DNA of 64,000 bases from a virus (lineage: Duplodnaviria > Caudoviricetes), in IMG/VR virus record IMGVR_UViG_3300017747_003445, positions 2,781 to 66,780 of that record. One strand, 5' to 3'. A program made the position numbers and the translations under genes. The notes below the pieces were generated by a model. That model saw only the letters and a list, made by a program, of their open reading frames with translations, did no database searches and was not told the origin of the DNA. Positions 4,519 through 36,582 of the stretch are shown in pieces; the stretch's first letter is position 1, and every line of letters starts with the position of its first letter.

Positions 4519-4737
4519 ATGAATAACGAAAATTACAATCAAAGAAATGTAGAATGGATACTTAATTGCATTGCATCTTGCACTAATAATGAACAATTAG
4601 ATTGCTGTGAAGTACTTATTGGATTATTTAGATTTAGACTTATGAAAGATAATACTGATGAAAAAGCGATGCACGATATAGAATGTGAAATTATAGAAGC
4701 ATTTATTAATAAGAGGGCTTTTTTAGAAATTATATAA
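4519..4737 (+). CDS. Hypothetical protein
   Basis: 72-aa ORF with TAAACAAAATG start. Confidence 0.6.
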   Translation: MNNENYNQRNVEWILNCIASCTNNEQLDCCEVLIGLFRFRLMKDNTDEKAMHDIECEIIEAFINKRAFLEII

Positions 4738-4738
4738 T

Positions 4739-4903
4739 ATGAAAAATAACTACGAATTAAAGCAGACAATGTTATTGTCCATAGAAAATGAAACTTTAAG
4801 AGAACGTGTGAAAGAATTAAAATTGGAGATAAAAAAGCTACAAGATGAAAAAAGAGAAAGAATGGTATCGGGCGAAGGGGATAATGCAGTTATTCAAGAA
4901 TGA
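4739..4903 (+). CDS. Small coiled-coil protein (54 aa, not in the ORF track)
   Basis: MKNNYELKQTMLLSIENETLRERVKELKLEIKKLQDEKRERMVSGEGDNAVIQE*; fills the gap between neighbouring ORFs. Confidence 0.5.
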   Translation: MKNNYELKQTMLLSIENETLRERVKELKLEIKKLQDEKRERMVSGEGDNAVIQE

Positions 4904-5030
4904 CAAATTAATAAGGGAATACAGATATAATGATAGTTATAATAGAAGAAGAATATATAAAATATGGATGGTTGAAATAAAGCCTAATGGAATAGATTCT
5001 TATGAATTAATTATTAAACCAGAAATATAG
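4845..5030 (+). CDS. Hypothetical basic protein
   Basis: 61-aa ORF. Confidence 0.5.
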   Translation: MKKEKEWYRAKGIMQLFKNDKLIREYRYNDSYNRRRIYKIWMVEIKPNGIDSYELIIKPEI

Positions 5031-5038
5031 TATCTTTG
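5031..5038 (+). promoter_or_regulatory. Bacteroidota -7 promoter box (TATCTTTG)
   Basis: Exact TAnnTTTG match; no clear -33 TTTG. Confidence 0.45.
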
Positions 5039-5071
5039 TATCCATAGTTGTTAGATTATAGATTTTTTAGT

Positions 5072-5104
5072 AAAAAACTCGCCTCCTTTCTAGGGGGCGT
5101 TTTA
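5072..5104. terminator. Bidirectional terminator between the early (+) and lysis (-) operons
   Basis: AAAAAA-CT-CGCCTCCT-TTCT-AGGGGGCG-TTTT. Confidence 0.75.
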
Positions 5105-5524
5105 ATTTATTGACTTTTGAAAGTAAAGCATCTCCCTACCGCCATATGCGTATTCAGGGGAATAGAATTTAAAGCCTTGTGATATTAAATTATTTACACT
5201 TGGGTAATTATCAATACTTGTATATGTTATAGCCATATGGCAATCATATGCTGACTTAATCCTTAATTTAATCATTTTCTTTTGCAATCCTTGTCCGCGA
5301 TAATCTTTATGTACCCATGCCCTTACAAATATGCAAAGTCCTTGAGCAAACCCACACCCACAATACGCTATTATTTGATTTCCGGAAACTATTACCCACC
5401 AGTCCCTATTTAATTTAAACTCATCATTGCACCCACTGAATACCTTGTAATCCAATTCTATTACTTGCTCGTAAAGATTTGGTTTTAGGACTTTACCTCT
5501 ACTGAATACCTTTATGGTTTTCAT
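5102..5524 (-). CDS. GNAT-family N-acetyltransferase
   Basis: Acetyl-CoA motif A 'VHKDYRGQGLQKKM' and motif B 'NYPSVNNLISQGF'. Confidence 0.85.
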   Translation of the reverse strand: MKTIKVFSRGKVLKPNLYEQVIELDYKVFSGCNDEFKLNRDWWVIVSGNQIIAYCGCGFAQGLCIFVRAWVHKDYRGQGLQKKMIKLRIKSAYDCHMAITYTSIDNYPSVNNLISQGFKFYSPEYAYGGREMLYFQKSIN

Positions 5525-5526
5525 GG

Positions 5527-6519
5527 TTATACAATTTTACCTTTGAATATTCTTTTGTTATTAAATTCAAAGTCCTCCCCATTCGGGTCAAGGTCTACCT
5601 CTGCAAAACCATGATTCCACTTATTTAGAGGCATATAGGCGGGGTGTAATTCAGAAAGGCAACCCAATGACCAAGTAGTTACCATCTTGCCCGTAAGGGT
5701 AGGTTCTGTGTGTTCGGATGTTTGGTGGTTATGCCCTTGGAAGGTGCTGACCTTTGCTTTTAAGAATAATCCCCTTGCAGGGTTTACGGGGGCTGATATT
5801 CCACCTACATATTCATGACCATGAATCCCCCACAGATTATTTAATTTCATAGGTCTTTTGTCCCCTATTATTTCTATACCTCTGGCTCTTGCTTTGATGA
5901 TATTCTCAAATTCAAATTCTTCTATTCCCACTAGTTCACCGGCTTTCTCGTAAAGGAAATGCTCGTACCTCTCTTCGTGGTTACCTATCTTAAAATATAT
6001 CTTACACTTTAATTCCTTTTCAAAGACATCAAATAGCGCTTTGAATGTATCTAGTTCTAGCTTAAAGTTTCGTTTCTTTGGGTCTTTTATGAATCTGCTT
6101 AATCTATGGCAGTCAATGGTATCTCCATTTAATAGTAGTGCATCGGGCTTGGTTTTTTTTGCGTATTCAATCGCAGCCGTTATCGCGCTTATGCTATGGT
6201 AAGGGACATGGATATCAGATAATATTAAAATCTTTTTATGCCCTTTAAATACAAATGGTTCAAATGCAGTTTCATCTGATGATGGTAAATTATATGGATT
6301 TCTAGGGCGTTCGCCTTCTTTTAACAATTCTGGAGTAGCATATTTCCTTTCAGCACTACCTTTTTTTCCCTCAACATACCTCAAACAAGTCCTTGCGCTT
6401 TCCTCATTTTTGAATGTTAAATTATTTTCCGAGTACATTATCCTAGCTAATTTTTTAGTAGGGAAATCGGGATGTTTTGTTCTATATTCTCTTGCTATTT
6501 TTGCGTTGCCATTTTGCAT
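5527..6519 (-). CDS. Calcineurin-like metallophosphoesterase with N-terminal extension
   Basis: SDIH, NGDTID, GNHEE, HGHE and GHNH motifs. Confidence 0.9.
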   Translation of the reverse strand: MQNGNAKIAREYRTKHPDFPTKKLARIMYSENNLTFKNEESARTCLRYVEGKKGSAERKYATPELLKEGERPRNPYNLPSSDETAFEPFVFKGHKKILILSDIHVPYHSISAITAAIEYAKKTKPDALLLNGDTIDCHRLSRFIKDPKKRNFKLELDTFKALFDVFEKELKCKIYFKIGNHEERYEHFLYEKAGELVGIEEFEFENIIKARARGIEIIGDKRPMKLNNLWGIHGHEYVGGISAPVNPARGLFLKAKVSTFQGHNHQTSEHTEPTLTGKMVTTWSLGCLSELHPAYMPLNKWNHGFAEVDLDPNGEDFEFNNKRIFKGKIV

Positions 6520-6523
6520 AAAG

Positions 6524-6994
6524 CTATTTGTATGTTTGGTAGTGAGGTTTCCCGTTTACTCTTGTAGCTTTTAAAATTTGCTTTCTTTGTTTACCGGTAC
6601 TCTCATAAGAAACATGAACCCAATCTGGATTTGCACTTGTTCCAAACTCCCAAATCAATTGGTCAAATTCTAAATTATCCTTGATGTAATTAAATACCAT
6701 TGTGTTGGTAACGCCATTTGCACTGCCATCCATATCTATGTCAACTGCTTCACCTGTGCTATGCTGTGATGTGGGTGATGCGCCCGGCGTACAAGCATTA
6801 AGTTCTTTGCTTCTGTATCCAGAACTAATATGAATAGGACAACGGAAATGATTCCTTACTTTTTCAAATACATTTTCTGCTAACAATTTAAAGTTAGCTA
6901 TGTGTTCTTCTGTTGGCATATTTGAAATGCCATGACGCTTTGCAGTTTCGCTACGGATTACTTCTGATAAGTCTAGGTGTTCGCTGATTTTCAT
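6524..6994 (-). CDS. Endolysin, peptidase M15A (Zn D-Ala-D-Ala-type peptidase)
   Basis: 'ISSGYRS…SQHSTGEAVDI…WVHVSY' motifs. Confidence 0.9.
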   Translation of the reverse strand: MKISEHLDLSEVIRSETAKRHGISNMPTEEHIANFKLLAENVFEKVRNHFRCPIHISSGYRSKELNACTPGASPTSQHSTGEAVDIDMDGSANGVTNTMVFNYIKDNLEFDQLIWEFGTSANPDWVHVSYESTGKQRKQILKATRVNGKPHYQTYK

Positions 6995-6997
6995 ATA

Positions 6998-7222
6998 TTA
7001 TGATTTTGGTTCTTCTTTTTTAAATATCTTTTCTGCTGTAGTTAATCCAAGACATCCAAAAGCCAAACTTGCTACCGCCCAAACCAATGATTCACTAGGT
7101 GCTTTTTCTAATGGGCTAAATGAATTGTGGTACATTGTAATGCATAACGCTACAACGCACAAAAGACCGCAAAGTCTTTTCATACTTAATCTATCATTAT
7201 CTTCTGTAAAAAATTGCTTCAT
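6998..7222 (-). CDS. Holin-like two-TM membrane protein
   Basis: Two hydrophobic helices and a charged C-tail; adjacent to the endolysin. Confidence 0.55.
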   Translation of the reverse strand: MKQFFTEDNDRLSMKRLCGLLCVVALCITMYHNSFSPLEKAPSESLVWAVASLAFGCLGLTTAEKIFKKEEPKS

Positions 7223-7228
7223 TGTCTA

Positions 7229-7642
7229 TTAATTTTTTAAATTGCTTATTGTAGTAAATTGAAATAAGATTATTGCTATAAGGATGATTTTTTGCGCGAA
7301 TTCGAGCTTTTCTTCCGAGTCGTAGCTTCTGGCTTTGGGTCGGGTTCTAAAGAGGTCAACACTTGTTTGATATTTACCTTTCCAAAGATTGATTGAATCT
7401 TCTTTATAATGTATTGCTTTAAATATGCTATCATATTTTTTGTTTTTAATTGTTAATGTATTATTTAATAACCCTATTGAATCGTTATAACTTTTATATA
7501 ATTTATTAATTGTATCTGCTTGTGTAATGGATAGTATTACAACCGAATCTCCTCTAAATACCCGTTTTTGGGGGTATTGGGGATAGCTTGATTTGGATAC
7601 CCATATCAGCATTAACACTATCAAGCCTACCTTTAATTTCAT
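7229..7642 (-). CDS. Membrane protein (spanin-like candidate)
   Basis: N-terminal signal/TM, coiled-coil middle, C-terminal TM; overlaps the upstream lipoprotein gene. Confidence 0.5.
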   Translation of the reverse strand: MKLKVGLIVLMLIWVSKSSYPQYPQKRVFRGDSVVILSITQADTINKLYKSYNDSIGLLNNTLTIKNKKYDSIFKAIHYKEDSINLWKGKYQTSVDLFRTRPKARSYDSEEKLEFAQKIILIAIILFQFTTISNLKN

Positions 7643-7886
7643 TTAATTGTTTTTTTAAATTCTTATTTTCTTCTTTTAATGTTACTATTTTTATTATTGT
7701 TTCCTTTACTATTTTGGTTTGGCTTTCACTTGCTTTTTTCTGAACCTCACTGCTAGCTTGCGTATTAGCTTCTACCTTATCTAATAAATTCTTAAACTTT
7801 GCATCCTCTTTAATATTGTCATTCTCTTGTTGCCCTATTGCTTGGCAACCAAATAAGAATATTAATAAAATAAACCTAATTCTCAT
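7554..7886 (-). CDS. Coiled-coil lipoprotein (spanin-like candidate)
   Basis: Lipobox-like LFGC after a hydrophobic stretch; long heptad region. Confidence 0.55.
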   Translation of the reverse strand: MRIRFILLIFLFGCQAIGQQENDNIKEDAKFKNLLDKVEANTQASSEVQKKASESQTKIVKETIIKIVTLKEENKNLKKQLNEIKGRLDSVNADMGIQIKLSPIPPKTGI

Positions 7887-8188
7887 TTGATAGATTTTAT
7901 TGCGCCCAATTCTTGCAATGTCTTTAATTGCGTAGTAGATACTGCTTTAGCTGAATCGCTTCTTCTTAATGCTTCTTGAACTAAATCTAACCTACCTTCT
8001 ATCTTTTCAATTCTAAAGTCTTGTGATTTAGCTTGTGATTGAAATGTGCTTCTGACATCTAAATACAAACCTGAAATACCACACAAAACTAAAAATAGTG
8101 TAGCTACAATTGGATTTTTAGCAAAAGTTTTAAAATCCATTATCCCTGTTACAGGATTTAAACCTATTTTCTTTTTAGCCGTTGCCAT
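7883..8188 (-). CDS. Single-TM coiled-coil membrane protein
   Basis: TM 'PIVATLFLVLCGISGLYL' followed by a coiled coil. Confidence 0.55.
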   Translation of the reverse strand: MATAKKKIGLNPVTGIMDFKTFAKNPIVATLFLVLCGISGLYLDVRSTFQSQAKSQDFRIEKIEGRLDLVQEALRRSDSAKAVSTTQLKTLQELGAIKSIK

Positions 8189-8740
8189 CTAAAATAACTT
8201 TTTATATAAGCCTATGCTTATGTGATTGGTGGTATAATTAAAAGTGTAACCTTCTTTTTGCTTTTTATAAATAACCCCTACTCCAACTCCTAGTTTTTGG
8301 TCAAACCTTCTGTAATCGCCTATTAACCCCAAGAATAATTCATTTTTAGGCTTGTGGTAAATGTCGTTCTTTATTGTAATTGTTTTTTGTACAAAATGTC
8401 CGCCATAACCTCTGCCTAATATTTTGTTTTGACTGATGGTGTCGCTTACATAAACATATTGAGCTGAATCTATTTTTAGCGTATCGTAATACGCATATGT
8501 ACGGCTATAATCGGATATAATTTTGATTGTATCGTGAATTTCATCTACTTGATAGATTGTGTCTAAAACGACAAAAGGGATGTCTTTCCCTTTCTTATAT
8601 TTGTATATTGTAGTATCCTTTACTAAAGTGTCTATCTTCGTTATTACACGAGTATTTTCTATAGGTTTAGGATTAGATAAAATAAAAAACCCTAAAACTA
8701 ATACTAATAAAACTATTAAAATGTTTTTAGCGGTTGCCAT
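8189..8740 (-). CDS. Membrane-anchored/exported protein of the lysis region
   Basis: N-terminal TM; DT/DS-rich beta segments; C-terminal amphipathic beta strands ending in F. Confidence 0.55.
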   Translation of the reverse strand: MATAKNILIVLLVLVLGFFILSNPKPIENTRVITKIDTLVKDTTIYKYKKGKDIPFVVLDTIYQVDEIHDTIKIISDYSRTYAYYDTLKIDSAQYVYVSDTISQNKILGRGYGGHFVQKTITIKNDIYHKPKNELFLGLIGDYRRFDQKLGVGVGVIYKKQKEGYTFNYTTNHISIGLYKKLF

Positions 8741-9018: not shown

Positions 9019-9630
9019 ATGAAATTAAACATCAACCGAATTGATTTAATTAAGAAGATAACAATTGGATTTCCCGATGGTTATGGCGCTGAAATAGGTT
9101 CGTTTAAGGGTGAGTTTGCAAAAGAAATAGTTGAAAATTGGGGTGGCAATTTATTTATGGTAGATGTGTGGATGGGACTCGGGGATGAATATAAGGACGC
9201 AAGTAACCATAATATCCATACAAACGCCTATGCAGATGCAATGAAATCTATAGAAGGATATGAAAATAGAGCAGTAATGGTAAGAGGAAGCTCTGAAGTG
9301 GTATCCGAGATGTTTAGAAATGAATCGCTTAATTTTGTATATATTGATGCCAACCATGCGTATGATTTTGTTATTCAAGATATTGAATTGTGGTATCCAA
9401 AGGTAAAAAAAGGGGGTTATTTACTTGGACATGATTACATAGATATGGATTGGGATAAAGACCCTCATTTTGCAGATTGCTATGGCAAAAACAAGCACAT
9501 ATATTCATCTACAGGGTTTTATTTTGGTGTGTTTGGCGTCAATCCAGCAGTGGATGAATTTTGTAAAACCAACAACTATGAACTTACCCTAACAAATGAG
9601 TGGTTTGGAACATGGATGATTAAAAAATAA
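9019..9630 (+). CDS. Class I SAM-dependent methyltransferase (Methyltransf_24-like)
   Basis: 'GAEIGSFKGEF', 'FVYIDANHAYD', 'VKKGGYLLGHDY'. Confidence 0.85.
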   Translation: MKLNINRIDLIKKITIGFPDGYGAEIGSFKGEFAKEIVENWGGNLFMVDVWMGLGDEYKDASNHNIHTNAYADAMKSIEGYENRAVMVRGSSEVVSEMFRNESLNFVYIDANHAYDFVIQDIELWYPKVKKGGYLLGHDYIDMDWDKDPHFADCYGKNKHIYSSTGFYFGVFGVNPAVDEFCKTNNYELTLTNEWFGTWMIKK

Positions 9631-9633
9631 ATT

Positions 9634-10524
9634 ATGAAATACCCCAAAGCGTATGTCTTATATGCCAATGAAAACTATATAGATATAGTTAATGCTTGTG
9701 CTAAATCAATTAAAACTTTCAGCAACCTTCCTGTTTTTGTCTATCTACTTAATTGTGATAAAACCGTTTTGGAAGCTGATAAAACCATTAATTGGGAGTG
9801 TGATATAGATGCAGATGAAAAAGAAGAAATGTACCTTAAGCAAAGTGATTTAAACTTCTATGTAAATAGGGCTAGTAAAAGAATTTATAGGCTAATAAAA
9901 GAACGACCACTTATTGTAAAGCATGCTCTAAAAATGGCTAATCTTGTGTGTTATGTGGATTGCGACTCCATAGCTACAAAGCATATAGATAGAGCCTTTA
10001 AATTATTTGATGAGCATAGCTTTTATCCATTTTTTTCTGAAGGTATTTATGATTTTTTAATGATGAATGGCAGGGGCGGGGCAACAGGGAATGACCTATC
10101 TACTACATTAGAACATCCAGCTTGTGAATTATTTAGTATTAATCAAAACAATCGTAAAAAATACAGGACATCAAATATATTTGTTGCAGGGCAAAATTGT
10201 ATTGAATTTTTAGACACTTGGTATTGGATGATGATACATCCTAAAATACTTGCAGACCCTGAATTATATGCCCCATTTCAGGATGAAACCATTGCAAACT
10301 GCTTGTTATTTAAACATAATTTTCAAGATGGACTTCCTTATGTTTATACTAATGGTGGATTAGATAGGATAGATGAAGTGCTTAATATTGGATTCAATGG
10401 TTCAGTACAATACATAGCTCAATGGTTTAAGATTCCTGCAAAAGAAGAAGATTTACTACTGTTCCATGGAGAAAAAAGAACTGCTGAAATGAATAAAATG
10501 ATTGAAAAATTAAAAACTATATGA
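9634..10524 (+). CDS. GT-A fold glycosyltransferase-like protein
   Basis: DxD motif 'YVDCDSI', 'QDET' and C-terminal 'FHGEK' as in GT8-like enzymes. Confidence 0.65.
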   Translation: MKYPKAYVLYANENYIDIVNACAKSIKTFSNLPVFVYLLNCDKTVLEADKTINWECDIDADEKEEMYLKQSDLNFYVNRASKRIYRLIKERPLIVKHALKMANLVCYVDCDSIATKHIDRAFKLFDEHSFYPFFSEGIYDFLMMNGRGGATGNDLSTTLEHPACELFSINQNNRKKYRTSNIFVAGQNCIEFLDTWYWMMIHPKILADPELYAPFQDETIANCLLFKHNFQDGLPYVYTNGGLDRIDEVLNIGFNGSVQYIAQWFKIPAKEEDLLLFHGEKRTAEMNKMIEKLKTI

Positions 10525-12566
10525 AGAAAATAAAACTACTTTACTTAATGCCTCATTGCAGTACAGGAGGTATGCCCCAATTTGTTCTTAAGCGTATTCA
10601 AACACTATTAGATTATACAGATGCATTTGAGATATTTGTTATTGAATATCATGATTATGGTAAATCATTTCCTGTTCAACGAAATCAACTTATAGAACTT
10701 TTAGGCAATAATTTTATTAGCTTACAAGAAAATAAAATGCGTGTAATGGAAATTATTCGCACCGAAGAAATAGATATAATTCATTTAGATGAGATGCCAG
10801 AATTAATGGATAATGATAGATTATTTAAAGATTTATATCGTAATGATAGAAAATGGTATATCGTTGAAACTTGTCATAATTCCTCATTCCGCCCTGATAC
10901 AGATAAAAGATTTCATCCTGATTTATATTCTTTTTGTACTCCTTGGCATGAAGATATATTTGGTAATATGGATGCTCAATTTGTTACAATACCATATCCT
11001 ATTGATAAGAAAGACAATCATGCAGTTAAAGAAGGTAAGCATGTTCTTAATGTAGGATTATGGACTTCTGGTAAAAATCAAGGTGAGGGGATTGAAATTG
11101 CACGCAAATACCCTAATATGACATTTCATTTTGTAGGTAATCAAGCTAGTAATTTTTCTGATTATTGGTTACAACTGATGAAGGATTTGCCACCCAATGT
11201 AATTGTATGGGGGGAAAGAAAAGATATAGATACTTTTATGGAGATGGCTGACATATTTATGTTCAATTCTACCTTGGAGTTGAATCCATTGGTACTTCGT
11301 GAAGCTATTGGGTATGGACTTCCAATAATCGCGCGGAATCTTCCGCAATACGCGGGAATGTATGATGATTATATTAATCCTATTGATACTGATTTAAATA
11401 CTTTAGAATGTACTTACAAAGTGCCTACTGACAATACCTCATTGACCTTTGGATTAAGACATGAAGAAGCCTATAAAAAGATATTAGAAAAGCCAATCCA
11501 TCAACAAAAAGTAAAAGTTATTAACTATTATGTGGATAACCCATTTTTAGAAATTAAGGGTGTTTCTGATAGTGATTTTAAGGTGGCATTTTATGATGAA
11601 AAAGATATATGCCATTATGAAAATACCATTAAATCAAATAATTGGGTTAAAGTTAACAGGCAATACTACACAAAATGGACTGCAAAGGTTTGGCAAGATG
11701 GAGAACTAATTTACGAGGACACACTAGACTTAAATAACAAAAGAGTTTACATAGCATTTGAAAGTAAATCATTAGGAGATACCATTGCATGGATGCCGTA
11801 TGTAGAAGAATTTAGAAAGAAACATAATTGTACGGTGATTTGCAGTACATTTTGGAATAGCTTGTTTGACTATCCAGAGATTGAATTTGTGGAACCATCG
11901 TTTGTAGTACCAAATATTTATGCCCTTTATCGTATTGGTTATTTTGATAATTTAGATAAGCTACCATTAAAGCCTGTAACAATACCTCTTCAAAAGGTCG
12001 CTACAGCCATTTTAGGACTTGATTTTAAAGAAATGATACCAATACTAGCTTATAAGCCTAAAGTGGCTAAAATGGGCAAATATGTAACAATAGCGACCAA
12101 TTCCACTTCAGGAATGAAGTTTTGGACTAAAGAGGGGTGGCAAAAGCTTATTAATTGGTTAGTTTCTGATGGGTATGAGGTGTATAATGTTTCCCTTGAA
12201 CCAAATCCATTTGATAATTGCACACAAATAACCACTCCTTCCCTTGAATCTAAAATGGATTGGATTGCAGGAAGTGAATTTTTTATAGGATTATCTTCAG
12301 GTTTAGCTTGGGTTGCTTACGCTATGGGTAAGAGAGTGGTAATGATAGCTAATTTCAGTGAAGAGTTCAATGAGTTCTCTTGCATAAGGATTGTAAAAAA
12401 AGATGTTTGTCATGGTTGCTGGAACAATCCTAATTTTAAATTTGATGCTGGAAATTGGAACTATTGCCCGATTTATCAAGGTAGTGATAGACAATTTGAA
12501 TGTCAAAATTCAATAACAAGTGATATGGTTATAGAAAAAATAAAACTAATGAATGGAAAATTTTAA
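10521..12566 (+). CDS. Fusion: GT4-like glycosyltransferase plus TibC/AAH-type (autotransporter strand-loop-strand) O-heptosyltransferase-like domain
   Basis: N-half 'ADIFMFNSTLELNPLVLREAIGYGLPII' (GT4); C-half 'SLGDTIAWMPYVEEFRKKH', 'FFIGLSSGLAWVAYA' and 4-Cys iron finger 'CHGCW…NYCP…RQFECQNSIT'. Confidence 0.85.
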   Translation: MKKIKLLYLMPHCSTGGMPQFVLKRIQTLLDYTDAFEIFVIEYHDYGKSFPVQRNQLIELLGNNFISLQENKMRVMEIIRTEEIDIIHLDEMPELMDNDRLFKDLYRNDRKWYIVETCHNSSFRPDTDKRFHPDLYSFCTPWHEDIFGNMDAQFVTIPYPIDKKDNHAVKEGKHVLNVGLWTSGKNQGEGIEIARKYPNMTFHFVGNQASNFSDYWLQLMKDLPPNVIVWGERKDIDTFMEMADIFMFNSTLELNPLVLREAIGYGLPIIARNLPQYAGMYDDYINPIDTDLNTLECTYKVPTDNTSLTFGLRHEEAYKKILEKPIHQQKVKVINYYVDNPFLEIKGVSDSDFKVAFYDEKDICHYENTIKSNNWVKVNRQYYTKWTAKVWQDGELIYEDTLDLNNKRVYIAFESKSLGDTIAWMPYVEEFRKKHNCTVICSTFWNSLFDYPEIEFVEPSFVVPNIYALYRIGYFDNLDKLPLKPVTIPLQKVATAILGLDFKEMIPILAYKPKVAKMGKYVTIATNSTSGMKFWTKEGWQKLINWLVSDGYEVYNVSLEPNPFDNCTQITTPSLESKMDWIAGSEFFIGLSSGLAWVAYAMGKRVVMIANFSEEFNEFSCIRIVKKDVCHGCWNNPNFKFDAGNWNYCPIYQGSDRQFECQNSITSDMVIEKIKLMNGKF

Positions 12567-13218
12567 TTGGGGTGACTCACCTGAAGAGTTCAACAAGCTG
12601 ATACACAAAGAGATATTTGAAGATAAGATGTACGAAAAGGTTTTTAAGGTGAAAGAGGGGGATGTCGTTTTTGACATTGGCGCAAGTACAGGGGCTTTTG
12701 CTTATTCTATCTTGGGTGCAAATCCAAGTCATGTTTTTTGCTTTGAGCCTAGTTACAAGGAGTTTATGACATTGGTATTAAATACTAGACAAGCGCCTGT
12801 TACCTGTGTAAACAAAGCCATATCTGGTATAGTAGGGGAGTTTAAATCAGACTATATATTTGATAATGACCAAGATAAGATATATTCTACCACTTTTATG
12901 CAAGTGATAAAAGACTATAATATAAATAAAATAGATTTTTTAAAAATGGATTGCGAGGGTGGTGAGTATGATATTTGCAATGCTAAAAACCTATTATGGA
13001 TAAAAGAAAATGTAAGCCAAATAAGTGGTGAATGGCATTTAAGCACTCCTGAATTAAAAAATAATTTCAGAATATTTAGGGAGAACTATCTAACGGCATC
13101 TAACTATAAAATATATTCACTAGACAATTTTGATATAACAATGGGTGTTTGGTCAGATGAATTTATAGACTATTATACAGAAGTTATCGTACACATAGAA
13201 AATAAAAAAGCAGGTTAA
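12553..13218 (+). CDS. FkbM-family methyltransferase
   Basis: 'VVFDIGASTG', 'CFEP', 'IDFLKMDCEGGEY'. Confidence 0.9.
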   Translation: MENFNWGDSPEEFNKLIHKEIFEDKMYEKVFKVKEGDVVFDIGASTGAFAYSILGANPSHVFCFEPSYKEFMTLVLNTRQAPVTCVNKAISGIVGEFKSDYIFDNDQDKIYSTTFMQVIKDYNINKIDFLKMDCEGGEYDICNAKNLLWIKENVSQISGEWHLSTPELKNNFRIFRENYLTASNYKIYSLDNFDITMGVWSDEFIDYYTEVIVHIENKKAG

Positions 13219-13436
13219 GGTTGTTTCTTCTCTTTTAGACCATAAGTAATCCATCTGTACCAAATACGCTCATGGATGTAGTATTGGATTGGTTTGTAAA
13301 CTAATTCAGCTACTCCAAATGCAGCTCCTACTTTTATAGAACCACTAATACCCCACATGATTCCAAATCCTACGGCTGTACTAATAATTCTATAGCTTAT
13401 AGTCTTGGCTAAATGCCTTTTCTTTTCTACTATCAT
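13215..13436 (-). CDS. DUF2061-like small membrane protein
   Basis: 'RHLAKTISYRIIST…YYIHERIW'. Confidence 0.8.
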   Translation of the reverse strand: MIVEKKRHLAKTISYRIISTAVGFGIMWGISGSIKVGAAFGVAELVYKPIQYYIHERIWYRWITYGLKEKKQP

Positions 13437-13810
13437 AAACCTAATTCTTTTCTAATTTTAGTTGCTGATATTTCTGCCACTTCTGATGGTGGTATATATT
13501 CTATAATGTCATATCCAACTCCTCTACCAAAGTTGACTGAAGAAATATCAGGAACAATAATAACTTGAACGCTTTCATTATCCCAATACTCTTTTGATAT
13601 GTTTTCAAATACCTGCCTTGTAGTAAATGGATTTTTTTCATTAACATCACCATCTCTAACAGCAATACATACCCTTCCTCCGTCATCTAATACTTGCTGA
13701 AATAATTGTTTATGAGCCTCGTGTAAAGGTTGCCAACGACCTATAAACAAAGACCATTGACTATCTTTTCTCTCCATTGAGCTTTTAACATGTACTTTTT
13801 TATTCCACAT
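13433..13810 (-). CDS. HxxH-class nucleotidyltransferase (cytidylyltransferase-like)
   Basis: 'FIGRWQPLHEAH' and 'ISATKIR'. Confidence 0.85.
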   Translation of the reverse strand: MWNKKVHVKSSMERKDSQWSLFIGRWQPLHEAHKQLFQQVLDDGGRVCIAVRDGDVNEKNPFTTRQVFENISKEYWDNESVQVIIVPDISSVNFGRGVGYDIIEYIPPSEVAEISATKIRKELGL

Positions 13811-14237
13811 ATTTCATTATTTTATCTGCTGCTTCTTCAATTGATTGATTATCGGTATTTATTTGCATGAAATTTTCCAATTCTGGTTCTTCAAAATCAG
13901 CAACATGAAAACCTTCTCTACCTCTTGGTTTTGTATAAGTTAAATATATCCATTTAACATCATCACTTAATGAATTAAGATAATCTCTAGCTTCTTTATA
14001 AGGATAGACAACAGATACAATTACATCTTTATTATTCCAGTCTAGATATGCAGCTATATCACTAGCCTTTTGCAAGTTCTTTAACCTACCTTGTCTACTA
14101 AAATCTTTATTCTGAAAAATTTCCCTAAGCTCATCTCCATCAATAAGTTCAGTTGTATATGAATCAAAGTACCCCCTTAACTCATTAGCTAAAGTTGTCT
14201 TACCACTATGTGGCTGTCCAAATAATACTATTATCAT
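13800..14237 (-). CDS. cysC: Adenylyl-sulfate (APS) kinase-like protein
   Basis: P-loop 'GQPHSGKTT', 'IDGDELR', 'FSRQGRLKN', 'FEEP'. Confidence 0.85.
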   Translation of the reverse strand: MIIVLFGQPHSGKTTLANELRGYFDSYTTELIDGDELREIFQNKDFSRQGRLKNLQKASDIAAYLDWNNKDVIVSVVYPYKEARDYLNSLSDDVKWIYLTYTKPRGREGFHVADFEEPELENFMQINTDNQSIEEAADKIMKYVE

Positions 14238-15052
14238 TTTGTATATCTAAATTGTTGAAAAAACCATTGATAATTATCCCAAATCCACCCTGTCACCTCT
14301 TTGCCCAACAGTTGTTTAGCTCTTGATGGAACAGGCTCTAGCTTTGTACGGATGGTATGGTCACCAAAGCTTCCATATACTTCATCATCTTCTTTAGTTA
14401 CTTGCTCTATGTTGTCCCAATCATGTTGGTAATATGGTATGCCTAAATACTCGTATATTTTTACCATTGTGCTATCAGGATATAAACATAAATCCTCAAA
14501 CTTTACAAATAAAACATGCTTGTCTATGTCTAATCTAAACATCTCTTGCAGCCTTTCAATAGCTAATCCTACGGGCTGTGATTGCGACCAAATATCTATA
14601 CGCTTTGGTACTGTCGTTCCCTGCATTTGCGCCCAATTTAAAATAGCATTTGCTTTGTCTGGATTCTTTCTATAGTTGTTTTCCATTGATGCAAACACAT
14701 CTCTTAAATCTCTAACCATCACAATAATTTTTGGGTTAGGTTGTATGAAATTTAAAAAGTCATAGTGTATGCCCCATCCTCTTGATTTGTCTACAATATA
14801 CTTTTTATTTGTAATGGCATTATAATAAGCTTCCATACCAAATCTACAAAAGGCTTGGAAAGCCGTTTTCATTATCGCAGAATCTTGTGCTTGAAATTCA
14901 GGAGAGTCTGTGTAATTACCTCTTGCAGCAAATACTAATTCTAAAACGCCACTTGTAGGCGTTGCATAGATATCTGAATTTTGAGCTAGTATGTTTTGTA
15001 AAAGTGTACTACCACTTCGGGGAAGAGAACTTTGGTAAAATATTTTTTCCAT
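14234..15052 (-). CDS. PAPS-dependent sulfotransferase
   Basis: 5'-PSB 'SLPRSGSTLL' and 3'-PB 'VRDLRDVFAS'. Confidence 0.9.
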   Translation of the reverse strand: MEKIFYQSSLPRSGSTLLQNILAQNSDIYATPTSGVLELVFAARGNYTDSPEFQAQDSAIMKTAFQAFCRFGMEAYYNAITNKKYIVDKSRGWGIHYDFLNFIQPNPKIIVMVRDLRDVFASMENNYRKNPDKANAILNWAQMQGTTVPKRIDIWSQSQPVGLAIERLQEMFRLDIDKHVLFVKFEDLCLYPDSTMVKIYEYLGIPYYQHDWDNIEQVTKEDDEVYGSFGDHTIRTKLEPVPSRAKQLLGKEVTGWIWDNYQWFFQQFRYTK

Positions 15053-15053
15053 A

Positions 15054-15932
15054 TTATTTTTTCAGTGATTCAATAATTTTATTTACATCAAATATCTCCT
15101 CTTCGTTATTATACGGAAACTCCAAAAGATTACCTGAAATATCATACTTCTGCAAGAATGAATGTCTTAACTCTGGCTTTTTTGTTTCATTGTTAGCTAA
15201 AATATTATCATGTATTTCATGTCCAAATACAACAGGTGTATTAACTACCCAACATACTGTGCTTGGCTTATTCATTGCAGCAGCAGCATGGTGAGCAAAG
15301 CTATCCATAAACAATCTTTTCTCACTTAAATCTATAAGAACTGCTAATGCTCTAAAATTATCTGTTACTGAAAATGTTCCATCAAATGATGGTTGGTCAT
15401 CTCTTCTAATATGAATGATGTTGTAATCATTTCTAAATTCTTCAATTACTCTTGCTACAACACTTGTAGGTATATCTCTTGCCCATGAGTATTTTAATTC
15501 TTGTTGAGCTGCGCCACCATTGGTTTGCAATAAAAATATTGGCTTGTCTGAAACAAACTTCTTACTAAAAAAGCTTCGCTCTCTATCGGTAAGAAACAAT
15601 TCTGGACTAGTTGATTCGGGTAAATCTAAACCAAGCATCTTACACCATGTATGTGTTAAATGTTCTGTTTGTAATAAATGCCCTGCTTCTAGGTACGGGT
15701 CGTGTCCAAAGAATTTAAAATCTTTTCCATCAATATAATCTTGGTAAAAATATTGAGTTTGACCAAATGTAAAAGCCCTATCAACGTGTGGATTATCAAG
15801 AAATACTTCAGGATAACCGCTTAACACGATTAATTGGGCTTCAGGATATTGTTTTTTAATTTGTTTGCAAATAACGGTGGACATGATACATTTACCAATT
15901 CCGCCATTAACTTGTAAGATAGCTATCTTCAT
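15054..15932 (-). CDS. GT9-like (heptosyltransferase-fold) glycosyltransferase; start revised to MKIAILQ at 15932
   Basis: 'GGIGKCIMST', 'YPEAQL', 'FMDSFAHHAAAAMNKP'; a -7 box overlaps the track's upstream TTG. Confidence 0.8.
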   Translation of the reverse strand: MKIAILQVNGGIGKCIMSTVICKQIKKQYPEAQLIVLSGYPEVFLDNPHVDRAFTFGQTQYFYQDYIDGKDFKFFGHDPYLEAGHLLQTEHLTHTWCKMLGLDLPESTSPELFLTDRERSFFSKKFVSDKPIFLLQTNGGAAQQELKYSWARDIPTSVVARVIEEFRNDYNIIHIRRDDQPSFDGTFSVTDNFRALAVLIDLSEKRLFMDSFAHHAAAAMNKPSTVCWVVNTPVVFGHEIHDNILANNETKKPELRHSFLQKYDISGNLLEFPYNNEEEIFDVNKIIESLKK

Positions 15933-15950
15933 GAATATTTGGGTTTTGCC

Positions 15951-15958
15951 CAAAGTTA
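15951..15958 (-). promoter_or_regulatory. -7 box (TAACTTTG) for the GT9/sulfation operon
   Basis: CAAAGTTA on the + strand. Confidence 0.6.
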
Positions 15959-16378: not shown

Positions 16379-17992
16379 CTATATTTTAATCCAACTAGAC
16401 CCTCCATTATTAGACCTCCATAATTCATTAGTATTATTACTACTATAATTACAAGTGCCTGCTAATATATATTGACCATCATCTGACGCTGAAATAGCCC
16501 ACCATTGTTTATTTCCGGGTCCCGATACTGCTGTTAGTGGCGTTGCAAAACTAGCTCCACTTTGATAAATTGGATAAGTAGTATTAGCACTATAATAAAG
16601 AGTATAAAATCTATTTGAACCATTATTAAATACAGCGATTCCACGATAAGCTGATGCAACAAAAGTAGAAAAACTACTACCTGAATTAGTAGAGGTATAT
16701 ATATCTGCACCTATTAGCCCAATCACTGAACCACTTGATGTCATTGATATTCCTCTTTTAGAAATGCCTTGTGTTCCAAAAGTAACAGATGTCCAACTAG
16801 CACCATTATTAGTAGATTTAGAAATCCCTGTTTGAGTGCTGATAACCATTAAGGAGCCATCTGAATCTATTTCACTAACAAAAAAACTATTTTGTTCATT
16901 TTGGTCATCTTCGTCAATAGCAAGAGAAAATGATGCTCCAAAGTTATTAGATAAATAACTTCTAGATGTTGGAGTACTAGCACTACATAATGAAGGGAAA
17001 AGACATACTATAATATGCTCTCCATCTCCTGAAATAGATACATTGCTTATAGCTAATGGATTAGGGTAATCACAGGAAGGGATATTGCTTGTTATATCTG
17101 TAAAACTAGCACCATAATCACTAGAGAAAATAAGTTTACCATATTGTTCGCCTGCTACTACATACTCTCCAGTATCTGATATAGCAATTGAACTCCAATA
17201 ACCAATTAATGTAGATTGTTGTCCTCCAACCTTTTGGAAATTTACACCGTAATCAATAGAGCGGTATATATACCCTTGTAAATTATCAAGAAATTGAGGT
17301 CCGACTTTTGCTGAAGCTACTACTTGATATTGTCCTGTTGTTCTACTAACAGCTACTGATGAAATTGGGAATTTTACATCAGTAACTCCATTATTAATTC
17401 CTCCATCTTCTACTACTACTCTAATAGCACTTGGAGCATATATAGTATAAGGAAAAGATAATAATACATATTGTGGTCCACTTGGAAGAAATATATCAGA
17501 TTGGTCTACTATTTGATTGCTTGAGTATATAGTAATATGAGCATAACCTGATGGGCTGCTTATTGTACCATCTATATATAATATAAATCCAAAACCGGCT
17601 CCATTATCTGCATATACTTGAAAATCATAATTAATTGTAGTAATAGTAGTTACATTATATGAAAAAGCGGCAAGATTCCCATTAGTTGAACCTGTAAAAT
17701 AAATACCATAAGCAGGCTCCATAGTTATTGTTCCTGTAGTATATATATCACCTTTTACAACAAGCTGATTTGTAGTTTTATTTGCAAAAGGAGGATATGC
17801 CGCTATAGTTGGATATGATATAGAAAGAGGGGCAAGTATATAATCTTCAAATTCTTGTTTAGTTATTTGCTTTGTACTAACAGGGACAGGATTAGATGGA
17901 AATGCCGGAGCATAAAATGGAGGATTAGTTATTGCATCTTGTAAATTATTACAAGAAACACATTGGTTATCAGCTATACTTGCAAAACTCAT
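16379..17992 (-). CDS. Tail-associated protein with BNR/Asp-box beta-propeller
   Basis: Asp boxes SIDYGVNF, SSDYGASF, SNNFGASF, STNNGASW, STNSGSSF, SNNGGSSW. Confidence 0.75.
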   Translation of the reverse strand: MSFASIADNQCVSCNNLQDAITNPPFYAPAFPSNPVPVSTKQITKQEFEDYILAPLSISYPTIAAYPPFANKTTNQLVVKGDIYTTGTITMEPAYGIYFTGSTNGNLAAFSYNVTTITTINYDFQVYADNGAGFGFILYIDGTISSPSGYAHITIYSSNQIVDQSDIFLPSGPQYVLLSFPYTIYAPSAIRVVVEDGGINNGVTDVKFPISSVAVSRTTGQYQVVASAKVGPQFLDNLQGYIYRSIDYGVNFQKVGGQQSTLIGYWSSIAISDTGEYVVAGEQYGKLIFSSDYGASFTDITSNIPSCDYPNPLAISNVSISGDGEHIIVCLFPSLCSASTPTSRSYLSNNFGASFSLAIDEDDQNEQNSFFVSEIDSDGSLMVISTQTGISKSTNNGASWTSVTFGTQGISKRGISMTSSGSVIGLIGADIYTSTNSGSSFSTFVASAYRGIAVFNNGSNRFYTLYYSANTTYPIYQSGASFATPLTAVSGPGNKQWWAISASDDGQYILAGTCNYSSNNTNELWRSNNGGSSWIKI

Positions 17993-17993
17993 A

Positions 17994-20900
17994 TTATTTC
18001 AATTTAGCTTCTAGTTTAGCAATTCTTTCTTCTAGTTTAGATAGTTTATAAGTATTTACGTGGTTGTAATCAACTTGCTTATATCCCTCTACATTATTGT
18101 GTACTGCATTTGGAAGTACTTTTTCTACTTCTTGTGCTATGTAACCAAAACAAGATTTATTATCCGTATCTTTTTTCCAAGAGAATTGACTAAAATTAAT
18201 ACCATCATAAGCACTAAATGTGTTATGAATATTTTTAAGTCTGCAATCTGATGTTTCAAAAAATGCTGTGGCAAACATACAAGAACAAGCACAAGAGTTA
18301 TTTGTATAAAAAGTACAAGCTGCTGAAGCAGTGATGCTACAACCAAAAGCTCCCGACCAAGCCCCACTAGCGGTATTACTTGAACCTCCTAAAACAGCAG
18401 AACAACCACCTGATGCTGCATTTGAAACACCTCCTACAACTACACTACGATATCCTGAAGCTGTATTACTATCACCACCGCCTACAAAACTTCTACCACT
18501 ACTTGCGGTGTTACTTGCTCCTCCTGCAACTGTTGTAAAATATGTTCCACTAGCTGTGTTTGATGCACCCCCACCTACTGTATTGTAAGCAATACCTGAA
18601 GCTGTGTTACCAACACCGCCTGACACTGTTGAGCTTAAGGTTGAAGCTGTATTACCTGTACCACCTGACACTGTAGAAGTAGCTCCTGAAGATATGTTAC
18701 TAACACCACCCCCTACAACAGAACAAACACCTGATGCTGTATTTGTAACACCTCCTCCTACTGTTGAATAACTATTTGTTACTGTATTAGTACATCCACC
18801 TGCTATTGCTCCCCAAGCACCTGAAACAACATTTGCTCTACCACCACCAATAAATCCGTGACAACCTGCTGATATTACATTTTGATAACCACCTGATATT
18901 GTTGATGCATAGACACCACATATTCTACTGTTATAACCTGCACCAATAAATGAATAATATCCTGAAGCTGTATTGTCTGCTCCTCCTACTACTGCTGCTT
19001 TATAAGGTCCACAAGCTCTATTACCTGTACCTCCAACAACAACAGCAGCCCAAGAAGTAGCATTATTACTATATCCACCACCTACAAAAGTACCGCAATT
19101 TGTTGATGTATTGCCAAATCCGCCTGAAACCACTGATGCACAACCTGAAGCTGTATTAGCATATCCACCTCCTGCTTTTGAAAATACACCTGAAGCTGTG
19201 TTTGATTGTCCACCACCTATTGATGTGTGGCTAGCTGATGCTACACTACCATATCCACCTACAATTGATGCACAAGAACCTGATACATTATTATTTTGAC
19301 CACCACCAATAAATGCACGATATCCTGAATTGGTATTAGTTCTTCCTCCTACAACTACATTTTCTGTTCCTGTAACTCTATTTGCATATCCTCCTGATAT
19401 TGTTGAAGCATAACCACATACTATATTATTATATCCACCACCAATAGTATCATAAGTACCTGATGCTGTATGTGCTCTACCACCTGCTACTGTTGTAGCT
19501 TGACCATTTGATGTGTTACTAATACCACCACCTATTACGGCATAAATAGCTGATGAATTATTTCCGCTACCTCCTGCATTTACTGAAAAACTACCTGATG
19601 CAGCATTACCTCCTCCGCCTCCCGCAAAAGAACAAGCACCTGATGCAGCATTAGCTGCACCACCACTTACTGTACTATGAGTTCCTGAAGCTGTATTTAC
19701 TCTTCCACCTGCTATAACACTTCTGTTACCACTTGCTGTATTAGCTTCTCCACCTCCTATAAAAGAAGAATAGTTTGATACAGTATTATAATATCCACTC
19801 CCAATACCTGACCAAATATAACCAACATTATTACAAATACCTCCTGATACTACAGCATATCCTGCTGAAGCTGTATTTGTTTTACCTCCACCTATAAATG
19901 AACAAGCTCCTGAAGCTGTGTTAAGTGTACCACCTCCTATTGTAGATAAATAACCACTACTTATGTTATTATACCCTCCTGCTATAGTTGAATTTACTCC
20001 TGATGATGTATTTGTTTGCCCTCCTCCAATTGTACTACCAAAACCACTATTATTCACATTTTGATATCCTCCTCCTATTGTACCATAAGGTGCACTATTT
20101 GTATTTTGATATCCACCTATTACTGAAGTATATTGTGCTGTTGCCCTATTCTGAAATCCTCCTCCTATTGTTGAAAACTGACCTGCTGCAAAAAATGTTG
20201 TAGGAGCTACTGAAAAAAATCCATTTGTAGTATTAAATGTACCACCTGATGTGTTGTTTCCAATACCACCTGATATTGTTGTACCTGATGTACATCCTGC
20301 TGCGACAGAACTACAAATATAGTTACAAGTACCTGCACCAATAAATGATGCTGTTGAATTTAAACAGTTTTTATAACCTGCTGATATTGTATTATAATTA
20401 CCACTACTATTATTATACCATCCACCACTAATTGTGTTAGCATAACCACTTGCTGTGTTTGTTTGACCACCACCAATAAATGAACGAGAACCTGATGCTG
20501 TGTTTGATATACCTCCTGAAACTGTAGAAAATTGATTTGAAGCTGTATTAGAACATCCTCCTATAATAGCTGAAGTTGAACCTGATGATATATTATTATT
20601 ACCACCACCTACAAAAGAGTATCCCCCTGAAGATGTATTACCTTTACCACCTGCTATTGTACCTGATGTAGCAGGAGCATTGTTACTCCTACCTCCTGCT
20701 ATTGTAACATAATATCCTGAAGCTGTATTTGATGTTCCACCTCCAATTGTACCACCATATTGACTATTTAATACATTACTTGCACCACCACCAATAGTAC
20801 TTGCAGCATTGGCTCCAATAACACAAACAACGTTAGCTTGACCACCACCTATAGTAGCGAATGCTCCTAATGCTCTATTAGAAATACCACCACCAATAGC

Positions 20901-32263: not shown

Positions 32264-32809
32264 TTAATATAATTCCCGTCCTATTAAAAGGTCATCATAA
32301 TTCATTTCCATTTTTGTATTATAGGAAAATCCATTGTGTTGAATTGCTATAAAAGGGACAGATACATAATACTTTCCAAGACCTGCCAATGCCCTGTCAA
32401 TATGAGCATCATCCGGTAAAGATAAGTAAGTTTCATAGAATTTTTTATTTACAATGTAGCAATGAAATCCGGAAAACTCTTTTACTGAATTATCCTTTAA
32501 AATCTCTCCTAAATAAATACCACTTAAATATACATCAAAATCTTCAGGTTTATGCTCTAAAAAATAAGAAAAACTATTTTTGTTAGTAAAACGAACATCG
32601 TCTTCCATTATGCATATTTCAGGCAATTTATTATCTAAAGCATACCTGACGCATTGTTTGTGTGCTAAATTTATAGCTTTCTTAACCGAATGACTATCAT
32701 GAACTGCCGGAAAAAATTTAAAATCTCTTATGCCTTGAGTCTTAAATTCCTGCATTAACATATCAAATCTAGTAGCTGAATCAAAATTATGGATTACTGC
32801 TATTTGCAT
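32264..32809 (-). CDS. GT25-like glycosyltransferase
   Basis: 'INLAHKQCV…ICIMEDDV', 'GFHCYIV', 'HIDRAL'. Confidence 0.75.
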   Translation of the reverse strand: MQIAVIHNFDSATRFDMLMQEFKTQGIRDFKFFPAVHDSHSVKKAINLAHKQCVRYALDNKLPEICIMEDDVRFTNKNSFSYFLEHKPEDFDVYLSGIYLGEILKDNSVKEFSGFHCYIVNKKFYETYLSLPDDAHIDRALAGLGKYYVSVPFIAIQHNGFSYNTKMEMNYDDLLIGRELY

Positions 32810-33605
32810 TTAGAATGTTTTTAATCTTGTTAAAAGCCCCTTCGTATGTATAATATTCATTGTATATCTCCTTGATTTTTAACTGCTTATCTACTATCTG
32901 TAAATCAGTGTAGCTTTTTAAAATTTCCTCTATTTTACTTGAATCCTTTTCTTCTATTATAATTCCATAGTCTTCAAAATTAGCATCAAAGCAACTAATA
33001 AATTCATCTGAAATATATACAGGGATGGTTTCGTATTGCATACATTCTGCTATTCTAAAACTATTCAATCCATACCCCCTTGGACATAATCCGAATAATG
33101 AATGAGAGATTATATCGCAAAATGATTGTATGTCATGCTGCTTATCGGAAATATAAAAATCCTTATTCTGTATGTTAAATACATTTTCCCTAATTGGATG
33201 CGTATGTGTACCAATAAATGATGCAAATATTGACTTGCTATGATTCCACTCGTATGAATGTGGCTTACACAATAAAGGAATTTCAACCCCCGTCTTTTTG
33301 CTCATACTGAAGACTAAAATATCTAAATCTTTAAAATCAGTCAGTACCCCGTCATCGTATTGGCAAATAGTCCAATATTTCAAATCTTTAGGTAACTTAT
33401 CTACATAGTCTTGTAATTGCTTTCTTGCTACAGGATTATTACCATAATTATTATTTACATGATATGCTGTCCATTGAATTGGAAGGTAATGCCTTTCAGT
33501 GTTTGGGATATGCTCGTGTGAAACCCAATCTTCAAATATAATATCATTTTCCCAAGGATATATTGTATTTATTGTTGGAGTAAATTCTTCTGGTATGTGT
33601 ATCAT
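32787..33605 (-). CDS. Exostosin-like (GT47) glycosyltransferase
   Basis: 'SLFGLCPRGYGLNSFRIAECMQYETIPVYISD'. Confidence 0.85.
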   Translation of the reverse strand: MIHIPEEFTPTINTIYPWENDIIFEDWVSHEHIPNTERHYLPIQWTAYHVNNNYGNNPVARKQLQDYVDKLPKDLKYWTICQYDDGVLTDFKDLDILVFSMSKKTGVEIPLLCKPHSYEWNHSKSIFASFIGTHTHPIRENVFNIQNKDFYISDKQHDIQSFCDIISHSLFGLCPRGYGLNSFRIAECMQYETIPVYISDEFISCFDANFEDYGIIIEEKDSSKIEEILKSYTDLQIVDKQLKIKEIYNEYYTYEGAFNKIKNILNANSSNP

Positions 33606-35241: not shown

Positions 35242-35243
35242 TT

Positions 35244-36565: not shown

Positions 36566-36582
36566 AAGTAAAATTAATTAAT

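Follow-up and report, generated by a model that had tools for sequence, protein, structure and literature searches.

Among the described systems closest to the locus reported here are the Escherichia coli pairs TibC-TibA and AAH-AIDA-I, in each of which a cytoplasmic, soluble protein O-glycosyltransferase is encoded beside a long, repetitive, Gly/Ser-rich surface protein. To our knowledge, all such bacterial autotransporter heptosyltransferases (BAHTs) described so far belong to Proteobacteria, where each acts with a virulence autotransporter. TibC modifies Ser residues next to Gly and accepts peptides. Its β-hairpin thumb builds the active dodecamer, and its four Cys residues form a 1Fe-0S iron finger (PMC4358343). 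In Burkholderia, the BAHT protein BimC is paired with the trimeric, YadA/UspA1-type surface fibre BimA; the iron finger of BimC is essential, and the role reported for it is polar targeting through this finger. Here we describe a phage-encoded member of the family, found in a 64,000-nucleotide stretch of viral DNA (hereafter the window; positions 2,781-66,780 of the IMG/VR virus record IMGVR_UViG_3300017747_003445, Caudoviricetes), where the open reading frame (ORF) 10521-12566 on the plus strand encodes a 681-residue protein consisting of an N-terminal GT4 glycosyltransferase (GT) fused to a TibC/AAH-family domain. Like TibC and AAH, this enzyme appears to be soluble and cytoplasmic and is encoded beside a long repetitive surface protein. 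Unlike them, it is encoded by a phage and fused to a GT4 (in relatives also to a GT of the GT-A fold), has a truncated thumb and does not conserve Arg286 of TibC, and its neighbour is not an autotransporter but a tail fibre with Pro-free Gly-X-Y tracts, which we propose as its substrate.

Mycobacteriophages have been described to encode GTs that, within the cytoplasm of the host, O-glycosylate structural proteins of the same phage (Freeman et al. 2023, cited in PMC12619734); in the passages of the citing article that deal with them, the targets are capsid and tail-tube C-termini, the hosts are Actinobacteria, and no BAHT domain is reported, which sets them apart from the present locus. Spore proteins offer a further parallel: in C. 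difficile BclA3-SgtA and Bacillus BclA, the Thr residues of collagen-like Gly-X-Thr filaments receive O-glycans from a dedicated GT encoded next to the filament gene (PMC7157674); unlike the system of the window, these have Pro-rich (GPT) triplets and non-BAHT enzymes, and are cellular rather than viral.

The C-terminal half of the 681-residue protein is a true TibC/AAH-family domain. The profile TIGR04414 (hepto_Aah_TibC; curated cutoff, 200 bits) matched it with 239.9 bits (E 4e-71) over profile positions 25-372 of 374 (348 positions), and with 240.8 bits in a six-frame search, while phmmer aligned it with TibC (PDB 4RAP) at E 5.4e-41; identity to TibC and AAH is about 30-37%. An AlphaFold2 (AF2) model of the fusion, built on 41 homologues with a mean predicted local distance difference test score (pLDDT) of 90.2, was matched by Foldseek to the TibC structures 4RAP/4RB4 at E 2.6e-27, with template modelling (TM) scores of 0.82-0.85 (TibC-normalised) and root mean square deviations of 2.3-3.4 Å over ~372 columns. 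The model has the fold of the TibC protomer, that is, an N-terminal flattened β-barrel and an atypical GT-B core. The N-terminal half was matched above cutoff by two GT4 profiles, PF00534 on residues 162-281 (40 bits; cutoff, 26.4) and PF13692 (37.4 bits; cutoff, 27), and resembles the GT4 enzymes BshA, PimA and PglA in Foldseek searches (E 1e-8 to 1e-10); Glu253 of its motif is invariant among homologues and Glu261 at least 90% conserved. The protein has no transmembrane segment, the longest hydrophobic run being 6 residues, and no PHROGs family matched it. The initial annotation, made from the sequence alone, had read this ORF as a phage-encoded TibC/AAH-type enzyme fused to a GT4, and had named a TIGR04414 search and an AlphaFold comparison with TibC as checks; both were run, and neither refuted it. 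The phage origin was also borne out by hallmark genes in the window (portal, large terminase, SU10-like capsid protein and primase/helicase).

The catalytic residues and the metal finger are intact in an alignment of three bona fide plasmid-encoded BAHTs, each directly adjoining, upstream, an AIDA-I-type autotransporter gene, with the phage enzymes grouped into 39 clusters at 80% identity (residue roles from PMC4358343). Thus, the catalytic base of TibC, D110, corresponds to D420 of the fusion protein, the β-phosphate contacts T226 and K230 to T529 and K533, and the sugar O4 contact W305 to W597, all of them kept in 39/39 phage clusters. The finger residues C339, C342, C358 and C370 correspond to C630, C633, C649 and C661, kept in 38-39 of the 39, in a motif reading CHGCW...YCP...RQFEC, so that the intact four-Cys motif claimed at about 12407-12503 was found where it had been placed. 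R286 of TibC, which contacts adenine N1 and is the basis of ADP-sugar specificity, is replaced by K578, and across the 39 clusters this position is occupied by Thr (24), Val (5), Arg (4), Lys (2), Ala (2) or other residues (2). P300, which determines heptose stereoselectivity, corresponds to S592 (Ser in 22 clusters, Gly in 11 and Asn in 6); AAH has Ser294 at the equivalent position (PMC4358343). Since the adenine-contacting Arg is not conserved, ADP-heptose is doubtful as the donor. The phage record also holds no gmhA or rfaE-type (rfaE-domain-II) genes, in line with the initial suggestion that the donor need not be ADP-heptose.

The alignment also revealed a 9-residue gap at V266-G273 of TibC, removing the thumb tip (F265/V266); in the AF2 model the region is a plain loop (residues 557-574, the truncated thumb lying at about 558-568). 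The gap occurs throughout the clade of the window enzyme, whereas a longer thumb is retained in some other phage lineages, including the divergent GT4-fused loci L048 and L053. Because the β-hairpin thumb is truncated, assembly into a dodecameric ring is doubtful to judge from the alignment and the model, and the expectation of an Fe-containing oligomer therefore stood for the iron-finger Cys residues and not for the dodecamer-building thumb. The loss of an element required for TibC activity, together with the iron-finger-dependent targeting of BimA described for BimC, might suggest that the TibC-like domain is non-catalytic, its finger binding, positioning or chaperoning the fibre while the GT4 performs the chemistry. 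We regard this as very improbable, as the equivalents of D110, T226, K230 and W305 would hardly be expected to stay invariant in a pure binding module; in this strict retention of catalytic residues, and in its fused extension enzymes, the window enzyme differs from BimC.

The tail fibre (2213 residues) is built, in order, of Gly-X-Y tracts, globular inserts, a β-roll array and a C-terminal S74 intramolecular chaperone, a domain that typically marks a fibre as trimeric. PF01391 covers 9 stretches of it, and the Gly-X-Y periodicity is uninterrupted. Its 154 triplets carry Thr (113) or Ser (32) at most X positions and Ser (112) or Thr (25) at most Y positions, with Pro at none; lacking both Pro and charged residues, the tracts are atypical of collagen-like proteins, and the triple helix is a prediction. 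The array, with its xVSGGxxNTASG unit, had been noted in the initial annotation as long and similar in composition to autotransporter repeats. Indeed, a 15-residue period runs through ~90 turns, phmmer matched it to the head domain of UspA1, a trimeric autotransporter adhesin (3PR7, E 2e-19; 3NTN, E 2e-7), and the unit V-S-GG..NTA-S-G resembles the TibA acceptor sites QN-S-GG and NT-S-AA. Pfam YadA_head had no match at E < 0.01 in the fibre, and an LbR_Ice_bind β-roll match was sub-threshold. By these similarities the array is probably a left-handed β-roll, a module homologous to the UspA1 head and not an autotransporter; neither an autotransporter barrel nor a YadA-anchor domain was found in the fibre or its neighbours, as had also been stated.

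Which part of the fibre accompanies the enzyme was examined across related loci. The fusion is abundant: metagenomes yielded over 100 clusters of related proteins (62-95% identity), and it is present at 57 IMG/VR loci. A large Gly-X-Y ORF lies 4-8400 bp from the fusion in 38 of the 39 loci whose downstream flank is 8 kb or longer, and in these ORFs the X and Y positions are 67-97% Ser/Thr and about 0% Pro. Among relatives of the window phage by large terminase (TerL), tracts were present in 6/6 enzyme-bearing records, and the 3/3 complete distant relatives lacked both enzyme and tracts; nine further TerL relatives with tracts only are fragments, and gene-order arithmetic puts the enzyme gene past the end of each contig. 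The pair also occurs on complete genomes of 118 kb and 321 kb that have no detectable TerL or capsid-protein similarity. In the reverse direction, among 43 viral records chosen solely because they contain an unbroken run of 8 or more Gly-[S/T]-[S/T] codon triplets, 20, in genomes of 24-548 kb, carried a TIGR04414 match, 19 of them above cutoff, compared with 4 of 50,697 deposited phage genomes that match the fusion protein at all, a base rate that refers to the deposited-phage collection and not to a random IMG/VR sample.

The array behaves otherwise. It was found close to an enzyme relative in 8 of 80 loci by a regular expression and, as this proved too narrow, in 5 of 80 by phmmer run for each fibre module, which left the conclusion unchanged; in loci without it the enzyme is still conserved at 45-94% identity. 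All 8 loci positive by the regular expression carry the sulfation block described below, which the array thus tracks rather than the enzyme. The initial annotation had taken the array as the target, as TibC acts on the β-helix of TibA. The array is real and UspA1-homologous, it offers the strand-loop-strand geometry typical of BAHT acceptors and units like the mapped TibA sites, and BimC provides the precedent of a BAHT partnered with a trimeric autotransporter. A conserved enzyme needs a conserved substrate, however, so that the array is quite unlikely to be the principal or sole acceptor; it may be a second acceptor region, chemically plausible in the window phage. Since the Gly-X-Y tracts, and not the array, accompany the enzyme across loci, we infer that they are the conserved and best-supported acceptor region for the clade of the window enzyme.

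We propose, with a probability of roughly 0.55, that the phage-made TibC-type fusion glycosylates the phage's own tail fibre, mainly in its Pro-free Gly-X-Y tracts. The fusion would be a soluble, cytoplasmic, two-enzyme protein O-glycosyltransferase, made late in infection and acting on the trimeric fibre before assembly. In its TibC-like domain, D420 would serve as the general base, T529 and K533 would contact the donor phosphate and W597 the sugar, and the four-Cys metal finger would be a structural and substrate-contact element. This domain would move the first sugar from a nucleotide sugar to Ser hydroxyls, perhaps also to those of Thr, mainly in the 154 Pro-free Gly-Thr-Ser triplets and possibly also at the Ser-Gly sites of the array. 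The GT4 domain, as the initial annotation had suggested, and the GT-A enzyme encoded upstream would then extend the glycan, the two flanking methyltransferases would cap it, and the sulfation block and a second GT cluster may add further decoration. The glycans of BclA, for their part, carry methylated terminal sugars, and glycosylated Thr stabilises the triple helix in some animal cuticle collagens. The likely role of the modification would be to stabilise the Pro-free triple helix, or to shield or tune the fibre. The comparisons described here show which domains, catalytic and metal residues, fusions and gene orders are conserved, and that the enzyme co-occurs with the Ser/Thr Gly-X-Y fibre; from them we infer which protein and which residues are modified, in what order the enzymes act, which sugar is donated and what purpose the modification serves.

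Several observations weigh against glycosylation of the Gly-X-Y tracts. The acceptor of TibC is a Ser, not a Thr, in a β-helical strand-loop-strand, from which a collagen-type helix differs in geometry. The thumb on which the active dodecamer of TibC depends is truncated, its tip being lost in the gap described above. Twenty-three of the 43 tract-bearing records, many of them fragments, have no TibC gene, and 18 of 23 TibC-like loci without a GT4 have no Gly-[S/T]-[S/T] tracts. The genome of the cultured cyanophage Mel-JY01, which encodes a TibC-like domain, also has no such tracts, so that its substrate must differ. The TibC-like family as a whole is thus not universally tied to a Gly-X-Y substrate. 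Moreover, co-occurrence can reflect linkage inside a mobile fibre module.

The fusion gene is the third of a tight, overlapping four-gene operon on the plus strand (Methyltransf_24, GT-A, GT4::TibC-like and FkbM), which converges on the fibre operon; its ATG overlaps the stop codon of the preceding gene (ATGA, 10521-10524), and its 3' end the start of the next gene at 12553. The upstream 296-residue protein had no Pfam or NCBIfam match, nor did any of its 25 homologues match a Pfam family. Its DxD residues D109 and D111 are invariant. The AF2 model of the protein (pLDDT 93.2) was related by Foldseek to GT6 ABO transferases, GT8 glycogenin and GT24 UGGT (E about 1e-6, TM about 0.5), and on the strength of this model the protein is assigned as an unclassified GT-A glycosyltransferase. 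In 37 related loci the GT-A, GT4 and TibC portions form a single ORF, in the order of the window genes, and in 19 the GT4 and TibC parts form a two-part fusion; FkbM and TibC-like domains share one chain in some relatives, as they do in Mel-JY01. The in-frame fusion of the three transferases in 37 loci, always in the same order, is strong evidence at the level of gene architecture that they work together.

The fibre operon on the minus strand encodes the fibre, a Sortilin/BNR-like protein, two proteins of no recognised function, a sulfotransferase, an adenosine 5'-phosphosulfate (APS)-kinase-like kinase and a small nucleotidyltransferase. Its last part, a four-gene block (13433-15953) lying downstream of the fibre and co-transcribed with it, is found complete in 9 of 11 related loci, the remaining two being truncated. 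By its gene content it is probably a module for sulfation through 3'-phosphoadenosine 5'-phosphosulfate (PAPS); this suggests that the phage encodes its own supply of PAPS and that the fibre, or the glycan on it, is sulfated, although the association might also stem from physical linkage. The nucleotidyltransferase and kinase were also considered as heptose activators and rejected: neither rfaE nor gmhA signal was found, and a PAPS route rather than a heptose pathway is favoured because the kinase is APS-kinase-like and both genes travel with the sulfotransferase. The 299-residue protein of the block was likewise dismissed as a second TibC/GT9-like enzyme, since its GT9 matches were all sub-threshold and it does not resemble the fusion protein. 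Immediately downstream of the fibre gene, ORF 16379-17992 on the minus strand encodes a 537-residue protein with a Sortilin/Vps10 (BNR β-propeller-like) match and a weak glycosylhydrolase hint; this protein may associate with the fibre and bind a receptor or degrade glycans.

A second glycan cluster, between the portal and terminase genes, comprises six GTs, two methyltransferases and one epimerase; its GT47 is exostosin-like, and its GT11 belongs to the fucosyltransferase family. With the first operon, this brings the phage to at least nine GT domains, besides methyltransferases and a sulfotransferase, which is more than the glycan of one fibre may need and could point to another target, such as a capsid, decoration or other virion protein, a protein of the host, or a glycan of its envelope, modified for example to block superinfection or the loss of progeny on debris. 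The absence of Gly-X-Y neighbours from distant TibC-like phage enzymes fits such a target, as does the virion glycosylation described in the relevant passages of PMC12619734, which affects capsid and tail-tube C-termini. Any target other than the fibre is unlikely, however, given that the BAHT family is known solely for protein-Ser transferases, that the enzyme and Ser/Thr Gly-X-Y fibres are strongly coupled statistically in both directions, that the genes are located inside late structural operons, and that the proteins are soluble and devoid of membrane segments. Phage GT-B and GT-A enzymes do glycosylate DNA (PMC12619734), but hypermodification of the phage DNA deserves hardly any weight here, as a hydroxymethylase of the thymidylate-synthase type was not found in the record, the TibC family is protein-specific, and the genes lie in structural, not replication, operons. 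The features of the window are collected in Table 1.

Table 1. Positions of the fusion protein domains, the tail fibre and the glycan-related genes in the window
Feature	Positions	Strand	Basis
GT4 (retaining GT-B) domain, residues 1-330	10521-11510	+	PF00534, PF13692 above cutoff; E253-x7-E261 motif
TibC/AAH-type (BAHT, GT9-like) protein O-glycosyltransferase domain, residues 332-681	11514-12566	+	TIGR04414, 4RAP match, AF2 model
N-terminal β-barrel of the TibC-like domain, residues 332-401	11514-11723	+	Strands in AF2 model
Four-Cys iron finger (C630, C633, C649, C661)	12408-12503	+	Alignment to 4RAP; TibC numbering of PMC4358343
Tail fibre, 2213 residues, proposed substrate	17994-24635	-	PF01391 Collagen, E 7e-57; PF13884 Peptidase_S74, 30.3 bits (cutoff, 22)
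Gly-X-Y region of the fibre, four runs	22449-24539	-	Runs 24396-24539, 23766-24386, 23346-23534, 22449-22880
xVSGGxxNTASG array, residues 730-2100	18336-22448	-	15-residue period, ~90 turns
Peptidase_S74 intramolecular chaperone domain	18099-18251	-	PF13884, E 5e-7
Class-I S-adenosylmethionine methyltransferase (Methyltransf_24; CmcI/rhamnosyl O-methyltransferase-like), first operon gene	9019-9630	+	PF13578, E 9e-16; weak PF04989
GT-A-fold glycosyltransferase (predicted), 296 residues, separate gene	9634-10524	+	AF2/Foldseek; DxD D109/D111
FkbM-family methyltransferase, last operon gene, overlapping the fusion 3' end	12553-13218	+	TIGR01444, 56.6 bits (cutoff, 37.7); PF05050
Small nucleotidyltransferase	13433-13810	-	PF01467
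APS-kinase-like P-loop kinase	13800-14237	-	PF01583
Sulfotransferase	14234-15052	-	PF13469
299-residue protein, no family	15054-15953	-	Sub-threshold GT9 matches only
Second glycan cluster, between portal and terminase	32264-37901	-	GT25, GT47, FkbM methyltransferase, short-chain dehydrogenase/reductase (SDR) epimerase/GDP-fucose-synthase-like, Methyltransf_24, GT11, GT2, GT25

The source of the window is probably an uncultured phage of a Flavobacteriia host, as suggested by its terminase, which resembles solely those of podoviruses of Flavobacterium, Cellulophaga and Tenacibaculum (29% identity), and by a GC content of 33%. The record, of 66,780 bp, has inverted terminal repeats, and a megablast search of deposited phages gave a sole match of 136 bp. 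Two giant ORFs on the minus strand were also observed, 40274-47851 (2525 residues) and 50841-54383 (1180 residues), the latter matching a virion structural protein PHROG.

Relatives of the TibC-like domain occur in other contexts as well. Microcystis phage Mel-JY01 (L082, PP395634.1) encodes, at 4750-8430, a 1226-residue protein annotated just as 'methyltransferase FkbM', whose C-terminal third is TibC-like at 38% identity. This phage was considered as a cultured model for the clade of the window enzyme and set aside, as the TibC-like domain is present but the tracts are absent. A scan of bacterial genomes found relatives only on 12 short contigs of metagenome-assembled genomes (MAGs; L086-L097), with a weak hint of a Bacteroidota host; the bins concerned range over Pacearchaeota, Nitrosotalea, Dehalococcoidia and Bacteroidota, and the contigs are most likely viral ones mis-binned into MAGs. 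In one record (G087, behind locus L211), two back-to-back TibC-family matches lie at 4622-6558, the second of which has an in-frame TAA and may be a duplicated, decaying copy or contain a recoded stop. An extreme multi-enzyme fusion is represented by a 2863-residue open frame (L065:258-8846), in which several FkbM-like and GT-A-like domains precede the TibC-like domain.

Full-text literature searches turned up no paper that connects phages with TibC or BAHT enzymes, or collagen-like phage fibres with glycosylation. It is possible, though we would put the odds somewhat below even, that the locus exemplifies a widespread, undescribed phage system, extending from 60-kb podovirus-like phages to 548-kb megaphages, in which a BAHT fused to extension GTs hyper-glycosylates Pro-free Gly-Ser/Thr 'collagen' fibres, the glycans replacing Pro/hydroxyproline as the helix stabiliser or forming a mucin-like coat. 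The natural compact fusions, with GT-A, GT4 and BAHT in one chain, would be useful for protein glyco-engineering. If the proposal is true, the enzyme would take protein glycosylation by BAHTs beyond autotransporter biology for the first time, and the BAHT fold would gain a class of acceptors, and perhaps a donor, not seen with it before. Glycosylation of phage virions would then reach well beyond mycobacteriophages and come in a second form with a mechanism of its own. The fibres to which the enzyme is statistically tied are of an unusual class and would form no conventional collagen helix without help; glycosylation would explain what stabilises or shields the Pro-free Gly-X-Y fibres that are common in aquatic viromes.

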